Virus record (IMG/VR): IMGVR_UViG_2711768069_000001
DNA from: a virus
Taxonomy: Monodnaviria > Loebvirae > Hofneiviricota > Faserviricetes > Tubulavirales > Inoviridae
DNA length: 10,788 nucleotides
Direction: 5' to 3' (one strand)
Position numbers and translations under genes: made by a program
Part shown: one piece after another, positions 1 to 7,463 of the stretch
Layout: the number at the start of each line of letters is the position of its first letter
Position numbering within the stretch: position 1 is the first letter of the stretch
Notes under the pieces: generated by a model
Told to the model about the DNA's origin: nothing
Databases searched by the model: none
The model's input: only the letters and a program-made list of their open reading frames with translations

Positions 1-180
1 TTACTTAATTTCATCCTGGATATCGATGCCTTCTGGTCCAAGATCTTCCAGTAAGGACTCAAGAATACACATCAGTCTATATTGATTTATGCCTGTACGG
101 GATGTGCTGTTTTCCCAGGCATCCCGTTCACGTCTGACCTGCTTCAAACTTTTTTCAATTTTTTCAGCTGTGATCGTCAT
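1..180 (-). CDS. Hypothetical small protein (59 aa from ATG at 180; track ORF extends to 228); stop codon is the first 3 nt of the window
   Basis: ORF track. The ATG at 178-180 overlaps the 3' end of the upstream HigA-like gene by 17 nt. Only a weak Shine-Dalgarno. No recognisable family. Confidence 0.35.
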   Translation of the reverse strand: MTITAEKIEKSLKQVRRERDAWENSTSRTGINQYRLMCILESLLEDLGPEGIDIQDEIK

Positions 181-430
181 ATTTGCCTGCTTCTGCTTTA
201 TTTTTCTGCTGTCGCAGATCATATGCATACTGAAGACGTAACCAAAAATCAGGAGTGCTTCCCATTATTGCTGCGATCGGAACGGCCTGCTCAGCGGTTA
301 ACGCCATTTTCCCTTCTAAAAAAGCTGGCTGGATGCCAGTTTCTTCGATAAATCGGTTAACACTAATGCCCATCTCAGCCAACTCTCTGGCAATAATTTC
401 GCCCGGATGAGACACATCAAATTGCTGCAT
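164..430 (-). CDS. HigA/VapI-family HTH (XRE-type) antitoxin-like DNA-binding protein, 88 aa
   Basis: Protein carries the family signature HPGEI...(HTH)...GSTPDFWLRLQYAYDLR. ATG at 428-430 with an AGGA Shine-Dalgarno 9 nt upstream. The 18-bp palindrome at 455..472 sits in its promoter region. Confidence 0.8.
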   Translation of the reverse strand: MQQFDVSHPGEIIARELAEMGISVNRFIEETGIQPAFLEGKMALTAEQAVPIAAIMGSTPDFWLRLQYAYDLRQQKNKAEAGKYDDHS

Positions 431-454
431 AACTAATCATCCTGTCAGATGCGG

Positions 455-472
455 ATTTGCGCATGCGCAAAT
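455..472. promoter_or_regulatory. Perfect 18-bp palindrome ATTTGCGCATGCGCAAAT, copy 1, about 25 bp upstream of the HigA-like start; candidate operator
   Basis: Read directly; identical second copy at 830..847. Confidence 0.55.
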
Positions 473-488
473 TATCACTTTGAGCATG

Positions 489-803
489 TTAGATCGATTG
501 TTCAAAGTAACGGGCCAGAGCCGTATAAATCAGTCGGTTTAACGGTTGTTGATCGTCTTCGGCCTGCTGTTTCGCTCGTTTGATCGTATCCGGATGGAAC
601 CAGATCCCCTGATAATCTGAGCCTTTCGGACTGGAGAAGTACCGTATGTGTACATGCCCTGCTTTTCGTTGGTTCAGATACCACTCAACGATTTCACTGG
701 CTATGTCGGCCTTTAACTCATCGCGAATGCCTGCCAGATTATTAACCGGCTGGATTAACTCATCTTCAATTTTCAGTCGGATAAACTTCAACTTTGTAGC
801 CAT
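489..803 (-). CDS. Hypothetical protein, 104 aa from ATG at 803 (track ORF extends to a GTG at 941); candidate partner or toxin of the HigA-like protein
   Basis: ATG at 801-803 is preceded by a GGGGA Shine-Dalgarno at 5 nt spacing, and the 18-bp palindrome at 830..847 lies 27 nt upstream. Position upstream of a HigA-family gene is typical of HigB-type toxins, but no toxin motif was recognised. Confidence 0.5.
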   Translation of the reverse strand: MATKLKFIRLKIEDELIQPVNNLAGIRDELKADIASEIVEWYLNQRKAGHVHIRYFSSPKGSDYQGIWFHPDTIKRAKQQAEDDQQPLNRLIYTALARYFEQSI

Positions 804-829
804 AGATTCCCCATAAGAATTGACGAGAA

Positions 830-847
830 ATTTGCGCATGCGCAAAT
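830..847. promoter_or_regulatory. Perfect 18-bp palindrome ATTTGCGCATGCGCAAAT, copy 2, 27 bp upstream of the ATG at 803; candidate operator
   Basis: Read directly; identical to 455..472, 375 bp away. Confidence 0.55.
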
Positions 848-937
848 CACGCCGTTCATGATTTACACAATCAATCAACAGTCGGTGTCTCAGTACGGCC
901 AGCTCCTCACGGAGCTGCGGGGCTGGCCGCCCTGCTC

Positions 938-2149
938 TCACCGCCTGATTTTTCTGGCCTGAAGTACAATAATGATGTCTGTTTTTGCTTTTTCAGTTGC
1001 CGTTGTTCCGAACCATGACGGCAAAAATGACAGGCCCGTATCTGCATTACTGTCTTTATTCTCAGCCAGACCACCAAGTAAAATTATGTCGCCATCCTTG
1101 AGCGAAACATCGGTGTTCACCTCCCGTTTAATGAGCGTCGGGCTGTTATTCACCCCAGTCTCTGTTTTTGCAAAATTAGACAGTTGCTGATGAATATTAA
1201 GGTCAATCGTAGCAGCCCGGATTTGCGGCTGAACGTTAAAAATTACGCCACTTGAACGATAATCAATGGACTGAACCGGACGACCATCAACATAGCTGAC
1301 CTGACCGAGTACCGGCACGTCAGATCCCACAGAAAATGATGCTTTAGAGCCATTTCTGACCCGCAATTGTGGCGAACTGACGACGTGAAAACGGCTGTCT
1401 GTTCTGAACAACTCATAAAGTGCATCGAGCGATCCAGAACTGAAACGGACAAAGTTGCTGAGTCCTTGTGCAGTACCCGTTTCTATTGTGAATTTTCCCG
1501 ACATAAGTTTGGCAGCCAGTGCCAGGCCAGAACCATTTCGCTCAGACGTCTGAACCTCAAACACGTACCCGGCGACAATAACTTCTTCGGCGGCCCGGTC
1601 GATAAGAGGAAGCAAATCTTCGACCCGCTGAATGTCTTTTTTCGTACCGTAAAAAACAAGTACATCCCCATTTCTGCTCAAAAAATCGGATGCGGTATTG
1701 TCTTTAATCATCGCAGGAGAAACATCGCCATGCCCTATTTGCCCACCATTTGAAAATGACCCGCTCACTTGTGACTGAAGAATATCAGCCAGATAAGCAA
1801 CAGAACGGTACTGTGGTGTGTAAACAAAAGAATATTTCGGGGCTTCGTATACTTTTTTCTCCTGGAGATAAAAGTAATCCACACCATTTTTTCTGGCTAC
1901 AGAGACTCCGGCATTCTGGAGATAACGCATAATAAACGTATACTCATCCATATCTGGCGTAATATTGAAATTAACTTGTCGTTTGTCCGTGATAAGTTCA
2001 GGAGAAACCATGAACGGTTTTCTCATAACTTCAGTATAAAACAAAGTAATGGCATCATTAAGCGTTAATCCTGAGAGATTCAGTATAACGCCTTTTGATA
2101 ATGCAGGTGGAATCATAAATACCATTATTATGATATAAAATAATTTCAT
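938..2149 (-). CDS. gIV: Filamentous-phage secretin pIV (gene IV), 403 aa from ATG at 2149
   Basis: Signal peptide MKLFYIIIMVFMIPPALS resembles M13 pIV MKLLNVINFVFLMF. Secretin motifs VFEVQ and LLGGL...DTGLSFLP match recalled M13 IFEVQQ and LLGGLTD...DSGVPFLS. GGGGG Shine-Dalgarno before the 2149 ATG; last gene of the Ff order. Confidence 0.9.
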   Translation of the reverse strand: MKLFYIIIMVFMIPPALSKGVILNLSGLTLNDAITLFYTEVMRKPFMVSPELITDKRQVNFNITPDMDEYTFIMRYLQNAGVSVARKNGVDYFYLQEKKVYEAPKYSFVYTPQYRSVAYLADILQSQVSGSFSNGGQIGHGDVSPAMIKDNTASDFLSRNGDVLVFYGTKKDIQRVEDLLPLIDRAAEEVIVAGYVFEVQTSERNGSGLALAAKLMSGKFTIETGTAQGLSNFVRFSSGSLDALYELFRTDSRFHVVSSPQLRVRNGSKASFSVGSDVPVLGQVSYVDGRPVQSIDYRSSGVIFNVQPQIRAATIDLNIHQQLSNFAKTETGVNNSPTLIKREVNTDVSLKDGDIILLGGLAENKDSNADTGLSFLPSWFGTTATEKAKTDIIIVLQARKIRR

Positions 2150-2150
2150 A

Positions 2151-3176
2151 TTAACCCCCAGTAAAATAGGTGACAATTTCACCATCAATGATTCCACTTA
2201 AAGTAAAACCTTCTCCGTCGAACTGATTTGCCGGTAGCGTTCTAAACCGACCATTGCTGTCTGTAAGAACAACCTTGCTGACATAATCTGATTTTAACTC
2301 CCCGGCAATACGCCAGCGCTTTGAGTACGGGGCATCAGGTTTCGCAATCTTTTCTGATGAAGGCAGTACAACCTCCGGTTCGGTATGTTTCGGCTCTGGT
2401 ACTGACTCTCCTCTAATATCCACCCAGACCGTTCTTATTGAATATATAGAAGCCAGTACAATAAATAATAAAAATGCAATTTTCACCCAAAGAAAGGCGG
2501 ATGAAAAAACGTTTTGTCTAGAGTCTGTTGTCGCTTCCATTCCGTTAGTGGTTTCATAAGATTTGTATAATTCAAAAACGGCTTTTTTGTACTGATAGTT
2601 ACGAGTACTGACTTTATTATTTTTGAATACTTTGGCACCAGAAAAAACATCGACACGATATGACTTTGATAGCCCCAAAGATTTTAGTTTGGTCATCCGG
2701 TATGTCGATTCAATACGCTCTTTAAGATACCGGGGTACACCATCTACACCCTGATTGATGATGACCAAATCACATGATACCCCACTAACAGCATGTGTCA
2801 TATGACGGTGCATTGAAATAAATCTTTTATGTGCCTCAGATAGTTTTGAGTCCGATGGCCATATTGACCATAATTCATCAAGACAAATCAGATCACCATA
2901 TTCACAAAATGCTGCTTTTTGTTCTGAAGATTCATCATCAGAGTAAAAAGGGAAGAAATCATCCTTTAATATTTCATCCGTCGATGCGAAAACAACACGA
3001 CCAGGCTGCTTAGTCTTGAATTTAGAACGACAATACTCATGTATTTTCTCTTCATTTATCCCTTTGATATTGGTGATTACACGGCGGCCTGCTGAAACCG
3101 CAGGGATAATAACACTGTAAACAACCTCGTATGTTTTACCGCTCCCCATCACACCCATATACAATGATACAGCCAT
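2151..3176 (-). CDS. gI: Filamentous-phage assembly ATPase pI (Zot-like), 341 aa
   Basis: N-terminus MAVSLYMGVMGSGKT resembles M13 pI MAVYFVTGKLGSGKT (Walker A). Internal hydrophobic segment. AGGA Shine-Dalgarno. Sits between the gVI-like and gIV genes. Confidence 0.9.
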   Translation of the reverse strand: MAVSLYMGVMGSGKTYEVVYSVIIPAVSAGRRVITNIKGINEEKIHEYCRSKFKTKQPGRVVFASTDEILKDDFFPFYSDDESSEQKAAFCEYGDLICLDELWSIWPSDSKLSEAHKRFISMHRHMTHAVSGVSCDLVIINQGVDGVPRYLKERIESTYRMTKLKSLGLSKSYRVDVFSGAKVFKNNKVSTRNYQYKKAVFELYKSYETTNGMEATTDSRQNVFSSAFLWVKIAFLLFIVLASIYSIRTVWVDIRGESVPEPKHTEPEVVLPSSEKIAKPDAPYSKRWRIAGELKSDYVSKVVLTDSNGRFRTLPANQFDGEGFTLSGIIDGEIVTYFTGG

Positions 3177-3180
3177 AAAA

Positions 3181-3468
3181 TTATCCTATTACCGGAATTC
3201 GACGAATAATAAAGCGAGTCACAAAAGCTGAAAGTATTATGTTAATCCCATCTATAACTTTAAAAACAGAGAAGAAATATTTCAGGCTATCTGGAATACT
3301 TGAAATTAACGCAAGAAGTGGGAGTTGGCGATTAACCATATCGAGAATAAGCGGCACGAATTCCTGCACAATAAAATACAATGCAAAAAACACCGTAAAC
3401 TTCACAATAACTGAGCGCAATAAAAACCCAAGAACGCCATATAAAACAGAGGTCATGATGCCAAACAT
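3181..3468 (-). CDS. gVI: Minor coat protein pVI-like, 95 aa, hydrophobic
   Basis: Small, strongly hydrophobic protein between gIII and gI, the pVI position in Ff. Call is positional plus composition. Confidence 0.65.
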   Translation of the reverse strand: MFGIMTSVLYGVLGFLLRSVIVKFTVFFALYFIVQEFVPLILDMVNRQLPLLALISSIPDSLKYFFSVFKVIDGINIILSAFVTRFIIRRIPVIG

Positions 3469-3477
3469 AAATCACCT

Positions 3478-4743
3478 TTATGCAGAAAGGATAATTCTGA
3501 ACGCTGCTATTGAGTAAATGAACAGAAAAATAACACCAATCATCGCAGCGTTATTATTTAATAATGTACAATGTGTTTCTAACTTATATTGTCCGTTAAA
3601 AACATCCAGTACAGGTTTTGGACACTCCGCATATTTAATTCTTTCGCTTTCTGCATTAAGTGCATCGGCTGAATCTTCAAAGGGGTTGAATGATAATAAT
3701 GGAGATAAAATTTCAGTACCTGCAGGTATATTTTCCAGTTCAGGCGGCCCAATACCAGGATCATCACCAAGATTAACCTGTTCTCCTGTCGATGGATTGG
3801 TTGGTGTTGTCCCTGTTGTGTCAGCAGGTAGTGTAAAATCGGGTTTGTCTGACGGTTTGAGAAAGTCAGATACAGCGGGCTTTGCAGCACCAGTTGAAGC
3901 AGTTACATCACGCGCTGTCACTGGTCTGGTGTGGTCGTATGCAAAACCAGAATACCCTGCTTCGGAGGCTGCTTTTTGCCATGCATTATTTACAACATCA
4001 GAAATAACTTCTGGCGAAAGATCTGTCTGCATTTCCGTATCTGAAATGCTATTAATAGCATCCTGTACGCTAACGGTTTTAATTACTTCATTACTACCCG
4101 GCACATAATCAGGCTGACATGTAGGCATAACCTTATTTGTACCGCAGGAAACAAGGTTTGCAGTTCGTGATGCCCAAAGCTGTGTTTTAGATGAATCAAT
4201 ATAAAATTTGATGGTTCTTAAATCAGACCTTGTCGGGTCTGCATTATATTGCTCAACTATGTATGTCTGACAGAACGTCGGATTATGCTGGCATATCGAC
4301 TGAGCTCCCTCAGTTGCTGTAACATAGCTTTCTGCGCCAATATTCCAGTAAAACCCTTTAACACCCTGCTCTCCCGTTATTTCTTTTACTTTGATTTGTA
4401 CGGAGTCCTCAGTTTCAATTAGCCATGCCACCGCACCGGAAGCGGCAAGAGCTATAAGCGTACCGCGGCTTAACAAAGCCCCTCTGAGTCCAACTGATAA
4501 CCACGAACGACCAGAGACACCTGCAACGGTATAAGCTTTCGAACCTGAAGCGGTAGAATTTAGATAACCTGAAATACCTTTTAATGTTCCGTAGTATCGA
4601 GGATCATTCGCTGAGAAACCACGCTGTGTAATTTTGTTTTTAATGGTTCCTGAAATGGTCTGATTAATAACAGCTGCGTTCTCTGCACTGTATGAATAAA
4701 AGCTAATGATAGATAACAACAATGCAATTAAAAGAGTTTTCAT
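3478..4743 (-). CDS. gIII: Adsorption/minor coat protein pIII-like, 421 aa
   Basis: Signal peptide MKTLLIALLLSIISFYSYSAEN resembles M13 pIII MKKLLFAIPLVVPFYSHSAET. Pro/Thr-rich linker and C-terminal hydrophobic anchor. AGGAGG Shine-Dalgarno. Size and position match pIII. Confidence 0.85.
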   Translation of the reverse strand: MKTLLIALLLSIISFYSYSAENAAVINQTISGTIKNKITQRGFSANDPRYYGTLKGISGYLNSTASGSKAYTVAGVSGRSWLSVGLRGALLSRGTLIALAASGAVAWLIETEDSVQIKVKEITGEQGVKGFYWNIGAESYVTATEGAQSICQHNPTFCQTYIVEQYNADPTRSDLRTIKFYIDSSKTQLWASRTANLVSCGTNKVMPTCQPDYVPGSNEVIKTVSVQDAINSISDTEMQTDLSPEVISDVVNNAWQKAASEAGYSGFAYDHTRPVTARDVTASTGAAKPAVSDFLKPSDKPDFTLPADTTGTTPTNPSTGEQVNLGDDPGIGPPELENIPAGTEILSPLLSFNPFEDSADALNAESERIKYAECPKPVLDVFNGQYKLETHCTLLNNNAAMIGVIFLFIYSIAAFRIILSA

Positions 4744-5317: not shown

Positions 5318-5605
5318 TTATTTAGTCTGTTCTTTATTTTCCTGATATGGAATCAGAACGATTCTTCCTACCCGTAATTTCTGGAAATCACCGACGTAAA
5401 TACTGGATGGATGTAATGTATATAATCCCGCCGGGTATGGTGCCTGACCCGCGTCAAGATTCAACTTGAAGAGTTGTGGATAATCCTGGCCAAGAAAAAT
5501 ATATGCAGACTGCTCATTAATTGTATACGCCTGCCCGGTCGACTTCGACACGCCAGAACGCGTATCGGCAATGGCCTGAGACTGTTTAATTTCAATCTTA
5601 ATCAT
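5318..5605 (-). CDS. gV: ssDNA-binding protein gVp (gene V), 95 aa
   Basis: Strong similarity over most of its length to recalled M13 gVp: MIKIEIKQSQA..TRSGVS..NEQ..YP.L.K..LD.GQ..Y..GLYT.H.SS..VG.F. GAGGA Shine-Dalgarno. Confidence 0.92.
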   Translation of the reverse strand: MIKIEIKQSQAIADTRSGVSKSTGQAYTINEQSAYIFLGQDYPQLFKLNLDAGQAPYPAGLYTLHPSSIYVGDFQKLRVGRIVLIPYQENKEQTK

Positions 5606-5617
5606 TTAAATATCCTC

Positions 5618-6733
5618 TTATGCAACATGCAAATAACGTGGTTTCACATACCATGATGGAATAAAGCATTCACTTACTGATACTTCTCTCACTTTCTTAA
5701 CAATAACGGGGCTAAATTTGGAAATATTACATCGCTGAGCAATGTCAATACCTATTTTTCTAAGCCTGGCACGATGGGTTTGCACCTGTGTTTTAGAAAA
5801 ATCAAATGAGTGACCGTGCATCCACTGGATAGCATACATCGCAGTGGTATTCGCTGATCGAGTTGAGTCAACAATGCCTTCACTGATTAAATGTTCACTA
5901 ATCGTTTCAAAATCCATCGACGTCACCATAAGCTTTTTATCAAGAGCTAAAAAATCATCATGTAAATTATTGAGTATTGAATAGTCGGAAAGCCCCCAGT
6001 AAATAAGATGGTTACGTTGCAGATACCGGGATTTAAGTTTTTGCTCAAATCTGACTACGCCCTGTTCCTGACAGAAATCAATAATCTTTTTGATGTATGA
6101 AACTTCAGCTGATGAATCCCCGAATTTATTCTTTATTTTATTAAGGGAGTGAAGCTTAATTTCATGTGCTTTATTATATACAGTCGGATAAATGAGCAAG
6201 GCGTTTCCTTTTTTGGATAGCCAGTCAACTGATTTACCGTTGCTGTGTAATCGCGGCTCACTATTGCGATACCGTAATGTTGAAAGGCCCGATATATAGT
6301 CATCTACATTATCTGCTCCGACTGTTCGGTTGGATGTAATGTGAATTTCACGAATACATGCGCCATCAGTAACCGTTCCGGCCTTTTCAGTTTCACTTGC
6401 CTGTCTCTGCCACAATTTCGTACATTTTGTGAATTCCGGCAGACCAAGGTCATTCAGGATCCGGTTGTATACCTGCACACAGGCATCAACAGAAGTGTGA
6501 CCAAACAAATTGTCCAGTCTGTTCCATCGGGATGGATTTCCCGACATTTTCAGAATCGAACCTTTAATCGATATCGAAACCTGATCGCAAAAAGATCCTT
6601 TATGTTGAAACACAGGCTGATTCAGTGAACCGGCCTCCCCTGTTTCAAGCTGAATGCGCTGATAAGCCACTTCACCCAGGATAGGAAGCTGGTAACCAAA
6701 GTCCTGTTCGATGGTAAGCCAGTCAAAAAACAT
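5618..6733 (-). CDS. gII: Rolling-circle replication initiator pII-like, 371 aa from ATG at 6733 (track ORF starts at a TTG at 6817)
   Basis: Large ORF directly upstream of gV as in Ff, divergent from the repressor. GGGAGA Shine-Dalgarno before the 6733 ATG. Assignment rests mainly on synteny and size. Confidence 0.75.
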   Translation of the reverse strand: MFFDWLTIEQDFGYQLPILGEVAYQRIQLETGEAGSLNQPVFQHKGSFCDQVSISIKGSILKMSGNPSRWNRLDNLFGHTSVDACVQVYNRILNDLGLPEFTKCTKLWQRQASETEKAGTVTDGACIREIHITSNRTVGADNVDDYISGLSTLRYRNSEPRLHSNGKSVDWLSKKGNALLIYPTVYNKAHEIKLHSLNKIKNKFGDSSAEVSYIKKIIDFCQEQGVVRFEQKLKSRYLQRNHLIYWGLSDYSILNNLHDDFLALDKKLMVTSMDFETISEHLISEGIVDSTRSANTTAMYAIQWMHGHSFDFSKTQVQTHRARLRKIGIDIAQRCNISKFSPVIVKKVREVSVSECFIPSWYVKPRYLHVA

Positions 6734-6883
6734 GTGTCTCCCGGAATTGACGCGCAAGGGTCTAAACTGATCTTTAACGGTGTCAGTTATACTAAATTGG
6801 AGAGATCTCAGTGTCAATATAATTGATACCGTAAAATGTCAAAACTGACCCTCGGTGTCAGCATGCTAAAAACAGGAGGTAGA

Positions 6884-7369: not shown

Positions 7370-7376
7370 TAACGTG

Positions 7377-7441
7377 CCCCGGGAAACCGGGGTAAAGTTC
7401 GGGTGTCACAGAACCCCGAACCGCTTCGCGGTACAAATTTT
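7377..7441 (+). terminator. Three GC-rich stem-loops between repressor and cargo gene A; last one followed by a T-run; possible terminator or attenuator
   Basis: Stem-loops read directly: CCCCGG-GAAA-CCGGGG (7377-7392), GTTCGGG-N11-CCCGAAC (7397-7421), ACCGC-TTC-GCGGT (7420-7432) then ACAAATTTT. Hairpins 2 and 3 share bases 7420-7421, so they are mutually exclusive. Confidence 0.3.
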
Positions 7442-7463
7442 ACACACAGCAGAGGAAGGCGGT

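Follow-up and report, generated by a model that had tools for sequence, protein, structure and literature searches.

Two identical 18-bp perfect palindromes lie a short distance upstream of two consecutive small genes near one end of a filamentous (Inoviridae) prophage, which raises the question of what reads them. The window, i.e., the whole stretch of DNA analyzed, is 10,788 nucleotides long and contains this prophage adjoining hipBA. The first-pass annotation took the two copies as a shared operator, most simply for the HigA-family helix-turn-helix (HTH) protein encoded behind one of them, with hairpins of the phage ssDNA acting as origin or packaging signals as an alternative. In the following, the palindromes are assigned to a larger set of sites, and the most probable reading, which is held tentatively, is that this set constitutes the operators of a phage-borne, TraY-like ribbon-helix-helix (RHH) protein.

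Organization of the prophage

The features considered are collected in Table 1. The element is rare, its left 1 kb being present in 9 of 5426 complete E. coli genomes, and the prophage occurs mostly in tandem arrays of ~9-kb units beside hipA. No close deposited phage was found, the best match being gII of If1 (69%), and a literature search returned no published description of either the palindrome sequence or the focal phage. The 59-aa helical protein gave no match in family and profile searches; a homologous 64-aa gene adjoins attP in L009 and L023.

Table 1. Coordinates of the features discussed (positions refer to the window unless another locus is given)
Feature	Position	Strand	Remarks
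Palindrome P1	830–847 (core 831–846)		exact match; 26 nt upstream of 104-aa gene start, ~90 nt past gIV stop
Palindrome P2	455–472 (core 456–471)		exact match; 24 nt upstream of HigA-like start (ATG)
Palindromes P3, P4	L003 11982–11997, 11884–11899; L004 5261–5276, 5359–5374		copies of the core just outside the window
59-aa helical protein	1–180	−	last gene before P3, overlaps end of HigA-like gene; RefSeq CDS in L001, L003
HigA-like orphan protein, 88 aa	164–430	−	TIGR02607 3.6e-15; shortened recognition helix
104-aa tandem RHH (TraY-like) protein	489–803	−	candidate binder; RefSeq-annotated start
GC-rich imperfect hairpin	879–947	−	directly past gIV, upstream neighbor of P1; ssDNA fold −24.8 kcal/mol, z −3.8
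Secretin gIV	938–2197	−
Zot/gI	2151–3176	−
gVI	3181–3468	−
gIII-like gene	3478–4743	−
Coat genes		−
gV	5318–5605	−
gII	5618–6817	−	Phage_CRI/G2P_X_C
HTH_3 repressor gene, 177 aa	6836–7369	+
hipA	9200–10579	−
hipB	10522–10788	−
IR-GGTTGGACAAGCC element	L003 ~11800–11870 (−); L008 3050–3110; L011 4340–4415; L018 2590–2670; L045 7335–7395
16-mer copies in other inoviruses	L034 3891–3906, 6886–6901, 6921–6936; L040 5579–5594; L107 10349–10392

Between the repressor/origin region and the attachment site lies strain-variable cargo (7374–9028), which corresponds to the 15% of the window not common to the other eight genomes. It consists here of four ORFs (158, 89, 159 and 129 aa), in LD39-1 of MltR-like and DUF2971 genes, and in PCP06021 of a 358-aa ORF. 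Beyond the cargo, an inverted pair of dif-like sequences surrounds a GC hairpin (window 9044–9125; L003 11600–11700; L008 3305–3400), one site reading GGTGCGCATAA-11 nt-TTATGTTGAAA and the reverse-oriented one GATGCGCACAA...GTTATGCTAAAG. No canonical dif occurs in the window. The inverted pair resembles the CTXphi-type attP used by XerCD, and this fits the tandem arrays beside hipA.

Just past the repressor gene, a 58-nt stretch (7381–7438), which includes the hairpins CCCCGGGAAACCGGGG and GTTCGGG...CCCGAAC, matches a portion of the major intergenic region of If1 at 93% identity. It is likely the plus-strand origin paired with the If1-like gII, as it represents the only If1 intergenic homology in the window. 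In or beside the gII-repressor intergenic region (window 6780–6860), GTGTCA occurs three times (6780, 6811 and 6855), and the 177-aa HTH_3 repressor may use these repeats as operators. Since the same region contains neither the palindrome nor a half-site of it, the 177-aa repressor is unlikely to be the palindrome binder.

A set of four conserved sites

Scanning of the window located exact copies of ATTTGCGCATGCGCAAAT at P1 and P2, 375 bp apart, and no further match with up to three mismatches anywhere in the window. Two matches were reached in none of 200 dinucleotide-preserving shuffles of the window, which rules out a chance duplication. The first-pass annotation had also considered that the palindrome might be a common repeat unrelated to these genes. 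Among viral contigs, the exact 18-mer was found only in the focal phage, and its 16-bp core in inoviruses and as approximately 14 single matches in unrelated viral contigs, a number judged near chance level; in the viral contigs, the palindrome is thus not a common repeat. The conserved unit is this 16-bp core, TTTGCGCATGCGCAAA, which is dyad-symmetric and can be read as TT-TGCGCA-TGCGCA-AA.

The pair seen in the window is real but incomplete, as each phage unit carries four cores in L001, L003, L004 and L014–16, i.e., the same prophage in other genomes. P3 and P4 escaped the first-pass annotation because both lie outside the window, to the left of position 1: P3 occupies the interval 3–18 nt from it, beginning 5 nt past the stop of the 59-aa gene, and P4 the interval 101–116 nt from it, 98 bp beyond P3. 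In E. coli, these 98 bp contain a 9-codon remnant behind AGGAGG, the gene itself being deleted, and beyond P4 there is a remnant of an 82-aa ORF followed by the pair of inverted dif-like sites. Salmonella prophages (L020–22; HigA-like protein 89% identical) and metagenomic relatives (L023/L024; 72% identical) likewise have four cores, placed equivalently; in these, P2 is conserved (L020 and L023), P3 precedes a 60–62-aa gene within the P3-P4 interval (L020–22 and L023) and P4 precedes a 64-aa gene (L023). Two cores are present in Salmonella L007/L008 and metagenomic L009, one before a 103/99-aa gene and the other at the 3′ end of the 82-aa ORF, and a single core in L010, before its 104-aa gene.

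Conservation of both window copies in related prophages, a check proposed in the first-pass annotation, was thereby examined across E. coli, Salmonella and metagenomic relatives, and the core is essentially invariant. At orthologous sites, variable columns amounted to 1/80 in the core versus 77/160 in the 16-nt flanks (Fisher p 3e-16; this value is only a rough guide, since the lineages share ancestry and the core itself was the query that located the sites). Among six lineages compared at P1, 28 of 32 flank columns show variation and none of the core columns does. The sole core variant is a C-to-T change in P2 (TTTGTGCATGCGCAAA), found in L004, L015 and L020–22. The element is thus real and under strong constraint.

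Concerning the position of the sites, the first-pass annotation had described both copies as near-equivalent with respect to the genes behind them. This is correct for the window (Table 1) and general: at 12 of 14 gene-proximal sites, the palindrome center stands +32 to +36 nt from the start codon that follows, the remaining two being at +23 and +29. The proposal of a shared operator is strengthened in this part, by four sites with an invariant core and fixed spacing. A scan of window positions 1–1100 gave no consensus sigma-70 promoter and no terminator at the palindromes. Hexamers similar to a −10 element adjoin some copies (GATAAT at the upstream edge of P2; TGTAAT/CGTAAT at P1 of L020 and L023), none of them with a recognizable −35.

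Several established types of element were considered and discarded. An intrinsic terminator does not fit, as neither palindrome appeared in the terminator scan and the T-run stands before the stem and the A-run after it. A Xer (dif-like) site comprises two 11-bp arms around a 6–8-bp central region; the palindromes gave no dif match with up to three mismatches, share only TGCGCAT with the XerC arm and have no central region, and the true dif-like pair is elsewhere. An integron attC is a 57–141-bp imperfect palindrome with R″/L″-L′/R′ cores (GTTRRRY) used by the IntI integrase, whereas the sites are 16–20-bp perfect palindromes without GTTRRRY and no integrase is encoded in the phage unit. A uORF or translational coupling, with the central ATG opening an MRK... 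leader that ends at the next start, is not a conserved pattern (in L023, MRK* and MRKSVS*; at P1, an in-frame fusion). In L019, palindromes near a distant homologue of the 104-aa protein encode AHAQQ in a DsbC-like signal peptide and were attributed to chance.

The HigA-like protein

The protein for which the operator had been proposed is a genuine HigA homologue, above the TIGR02607 cutoff and matching P. vulgaris HigA with an E value of 4e-23, and P2 is located directly upstream of its gene. Antitoxins of the HigA family are HTH repressors which, as dimers, recognize inverted repeats in front of their own operon (PMC12266136), so the arrangement recalls the hig O1/O2 operators of P. vulgaris Rts1. 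The differences from HigBA autoregulation are nevertheless considerable. All the phage copies display a 4-residue gap aligned to T37-V38-S39-R40 in the recognition helix of P. vulgaris HigA, and Arg40 is the only base-specific DNA contact of that protein (PMC12266136). No Pfam HTH match was obtained for the phage protein, and family searches found no HigB or other toxin-family match among its neighbors, the tandem-RHH and the 59-aa helical proteins. The palindromes are independent of the presence of the gene, as it is absent from L008 and L009 (two sites each) and from L010 (one site), which keep them; conversely, L025 encodes a HigA 59% identical, with an intact helix, but has no such palindrome. 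Together, the shortened helix, the missing HigB, the HigA-less relatives with sites and the site-less L025 leave HigA unsupported as the binder, and it is extremely unlikely that this protein reads both palindromes. The orphan HigA-like protein may have a role other than that of a DNA-binding repressor, e.g., as a decoy for HigB toxins.

The 104-aa tandem RHH protein as the candidate binder

The gene directly behind P1 is a different case. It occupies this position in every lineage-A locus with the site, including the HigA-less L008, L009 and L010. Structure prediction from four sequences gave a poor AlphaFold2 model (pLDDT 60), so a 40-sequence alignment from a representative search was used instead; the resulting model (pLDDT 93.3, pTM 0.86) displays a beta-alpha-alpha-beta-alpha-alpha topology. 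The protein is thus predicted with high confidence to be a tandem RHH protein, in which a single chain with two beta-alpha-alpha repeats folds as a pseudo-dimer. Its best structural match is TraY, at a sequence identity of only 9% and with no Pfam TraY match. The family profile matched in the PDB SvtR (2.3e-4), ORF56 (1.1e-3), omega and CopG; family members matched Antitox_RHH, CopG_antitoxin and Arc below the Pfam cutoffs; and residues 72–102 matched a PHROG Arc-like repressor (1e-3).

Homologues with 39–49% identity were found in 41 enterobacterial plasmids, 30 of them predicted to be conjugative. In pECL_B (MOBF/MPF_F) and in Rahnella L011, a paralogue pair lies just upstream of DsbC-pilin-TraL-TraE-TraK, i.e., in the traY position, which is held by the plasmid homologues and not by the phage copy itself. 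In two of the conjugative elements with such paralogues (L011 4806–4825, L019 3513–3532), a different perfect palindrome, ATGATACA-N4-TGTATCAT, is placed between TATAAT and the first tra start, 17–18 nt before the start; the corresponding palindrome of pECL_B is degenerate and precedes the start by ~24 nt (L045 ~7606–7627). This palindrome is likely the operator of the plasmid TraY-like subfamily, and it has the same architecture as the phage sites with a different sequence.

Another element accompanies the TraY-like gene in MOBF/MPF_F conjugative plasmids and in phages, located behind it and, in phages, inside the 82-aa ORF or its remnant. In it, an inverted repeat that varies between loci, with compensatory changes, precedes the invariant GGTTGGACAAGCC; GGCGCGTCAG follows a few bases on, except in L018 (Table 1). 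The element looks plasmid-derived, and an oriT-like or single-strand initiation role is conceivable.

Considering these data, the following mechanism is proposed. The palindromes would be the operators of a small phage regulon, with one copy before each accessory gene or cassette in the segment from gIV to the attachment site of a filamentous prophage of E. coli and Salmonella that integrates at dif. The 104-aa protein would bind each site as two monomers, with one pseudo-dimeric beta-sheet per half-site. Binding at P1 would autoregulate its own gene, and binding at P2 would co-regulate the HigA-like/59-aa pair; P3 and P4 would control the 60–62-aa and 64-aa cassettes that relatives carry and that E. 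coli has lost or retains only in truncated form. We infer the identity of the binder, the two-monomer stoichiometry and transcriptional repression by binding; the stoichiometry and the accessory-cassette regulon are suggested by the RHH gene behind P1, by the RHH fold and by the traY-position homologues of plasmids with the same palindrome architecture.

The assignment to the RHH protein gains from the fact that the 177-aa repressor has its own candidate sites and that no palindrome is present at the gII promoter. On the other hand, it is weakened by the lack of a consensus sigma-70 promoter beside the sites, by the disruption of the RHH gene by insertion sequences in L005 and L016, and by the same 16-mer in inovirus lineages with no detectable homologue of the protein. 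The co-occurrence of the sites with the RHH gene within one phage lineage represents linkage and not independent evidence. As to the disruptions, an IS3-family orfA is found in L005 (5725–6232), and L016 (1495–3183) has ~1.3 kb extra between P1 and P2, interrupting the RHH gene. The protein is therefore dispensable for prophage carriage.

The core in other inoviruses

Seven of the 21 viral contigs with the 16-mer are inoviruses. The three 16-mer inovirus lineages have only core morphogenesis genes in common (Zot and a weakly related gIII), and neither tblastn nor HMM searches detected a 104-aa homologue in the 16-mer-bearing inoviruses other than the focal phage. In L030, a complete 6.5-kb Ff/IKe-like phage, the 16-mer is at 281–296, between gII and gV, 20 nt before the gV ATG. 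In L032, L034 and L040, a gIII-like protein (MRKF...) starts at the central ATG of the palindrome, with GGGAG upstream. A third location, in L034, L087, L107, L115, L124 and L129, is the intergenic DNA that separates gI from the Ff-type nick sequence TTTAATAGTGGACTCTTG; in all of these except L034, the 16-mer adjoins a 14-bp variant, GTTTCGCATGCGAAAC. The palindrome of lineage C is ~250 nt before the Ff-type nick sequence, and the 8 bases behind it (tttctcgt) are common to P1 and the lineage-C intergenic copy. By virtue of these 8 bases, both copies are taken to be related by descent, and the palindrome site may predate the capture of the RHH gene in the focal phage.

Small phrog_2503 ORFs, mutually homologous in L030 and L034, were considered as a common binder and rejected, because IKe has the ORF without the palindrome; Pfam and PDB sequence searches did not identify them as RHH proteins. 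In an unrelated low-GC phage contig, L041, an intergenic region close to fragments of an integrase (2775–2990) contains four to five repeats of the TTTGCGCA half-site, among them the full palindrome.

Other readings of the palindromes

The recurrence of the exact 16-mer in three lineages that share little else, seven of 21 contigs with it being inoviruses, together with the tttctcgt beside both P1 and the lineage-C copy, would agree with binding by a factor that several inoviruses of one host group have in common; a host DNA-binding protein is the most plausible candidate, and the RHH gene would then be incidental. This reading is possible but unlikely: to our knowledge, the palindrome matches no known E. 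coli regulator site, its sequence was not found in the literature search, and a search of E. coli genomes did not detect lineage C. Alternatively, the palindrome could act as a nucleic-acid structure, either as an mRNA hairpin 5′ of each ribosome-binding site, with effects on stability, processing or translation, or as an intergenic cis-signal of the packaged ssDNA. The fixed distance to start codons agrees with a hairpin, as do the gIII AUG in the hairpin loop in L034 and L040, the G·U pair kept in the sense strand by the C-to-T variant of P2, and the 14-bp variant TTTCGCATGCGAAA, in which one base pair is lost symmetrically, next to the lineage-C intergenic site. However, the palindrome alone folds as ssDNA with only −6 kcal/mol (z −1.8), the minimum-energy RNA fold in window contexts leaves it unused, with unremarkable z-scores, no Rfam match was obtained, and the core is essentially invariant, with no compensatory changes over ~25 sites. 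Far stronger ssDNA structures are found at attP, where the inverted dif-like pair forms a forked hairpin (−35 kcal/mol, z −8.2), and past gIV. A structural role is thus considered quite unlikely. As regards the origin or packaging hairpin of the first-pass annotation, it is considered improbable for P1 and P2 on the grounds of this low stability and of the sole If1 intergenic homology being at 7381–7438; what stands in its favor is the homologous copy adjoining the nick site in the other lineage.

The palindromes could also be module or cassette junctions, used for exchange or insertion by recombination or template switching and not for regulation. In every lineage, they mark module boundaries (gII/gV, gVIII/gIII, gI/intergenic region, gIV/accessory genes and between accessory cassettes), and the segments between them vary among relatives in content and identity: P2-P3 is 80% identical versus 92–95% for its neighbors, P3-P4 contains a gene or is empty, and L023 carries an 800-bp insert in P1-P2. 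Yet no dedicated recombinase is present, 16 bp is short for homologous recombination, and not all breakpoints are at palindromes, as the 82-aa remnant is past P4 in E. coli and before the last palindrome in L008. Moreover, junction use alone leaves unexplained the fixed distance to start codons, so this reading is regarded as very unlikely. In a broader version, which is likewise strongly doubted, TTTGCGCATGCGCAAA would be a portable cis-element marking gene or module starts in at least three enterobacterial inovirus lineages with different regulators, read by a common factor (a host protein or the ssDNA/mRNA form), with cassettes inserted beside it. The palindromes as operators of the TraY-like RHH protein remain the preferred reading.

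The strong hairpin past gIV (Table 1) is an observation of a different kind. Part of it reads CAGCTCC-GTGA-GGAGCTG, where relatives show loop variation of the GNRA type, and its sequence is conserved in L008, L010, L020 and L023, in L010 without the secretin gene before it. This hairpin may serve as a packaging signal or terminator.

Comparison with known systems

Structurally, the closest relatives of the candidate binder are F-plasmid TraY and the single-chain tandem-RHH proteins VirC2 and AvtR. TraY recognizes imperfect GA(G/T)A arrangements and no perfect palindrome of 16 bp, and the phage protein, in contrast to TraY, sits in a filamentous phage without a relaxase. KorA/KorB (IncP) and omega (pSM19035) are multi-operator regulators of mobile elements, and omega is an RHH protein. 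In functional logic, they and ArtA (pSK41) are the closest, with several identical perfect palindromes before several genes and a small repressor encoded among them; here, likewise, identical dyad-symmetric sites were found before several transcription units, at a fixed position and four per phage. The sequences and proteins are unrelated, however, and the focal site occurs also in phages without the RHH protein. ArtA, too, is an RHH protein (PMC2777438).

With the intergenic hairpins of Ff and IKe phages, the palindromes share the location of P1 behind the last morphogenesis gene, where Ff phages keep cis-signals, and the above-mentioned proximity of the lineage-C copy to the nick sequence. 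They differ in that three of the four focal copies are between genes, outside an intergenic region; the focal phage unit has no Ff nick motif, and both IKe and If1 lack the palindrome motif. The annotated intergenic stem-loops of IKe measure 18–56 nt and the Ff packaging signal ~78 nt, versus the 18 nt of the focal hairpin. On the preferred reading, the palindromes would be an undescribed operator-like set of a general kind that is already known.

Significance

An easy misannotation is corrected here, since the putative HigA antitoxin has no detected HigB partner, carries a defective recognition helix and is an unlikely regulator. The recurrence of the 16-mer at gene starts of unrelated inoviruses could point to a shared host factor or to a cassette-junction mechanism. 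Were the core a portable cis-element, it would give filamentous phages a simple means of capturing and expressing cassettes; those of the focal phage would comprise, among others, the HigA-like gene and the TraY-like gene of plasmid origin, the latter together with its IR-GGTTGGACAAGCC element. If the preferred reading is true, a TraY-like tandem-RHH protein and four identical operators would form an autonomous circuit controlling accessory genes, namely those carried into E. coli and Salmonella by a dif-integrating filamentous prophage, and a protein family of the relaxosome type would have been recruited by an inovirus.
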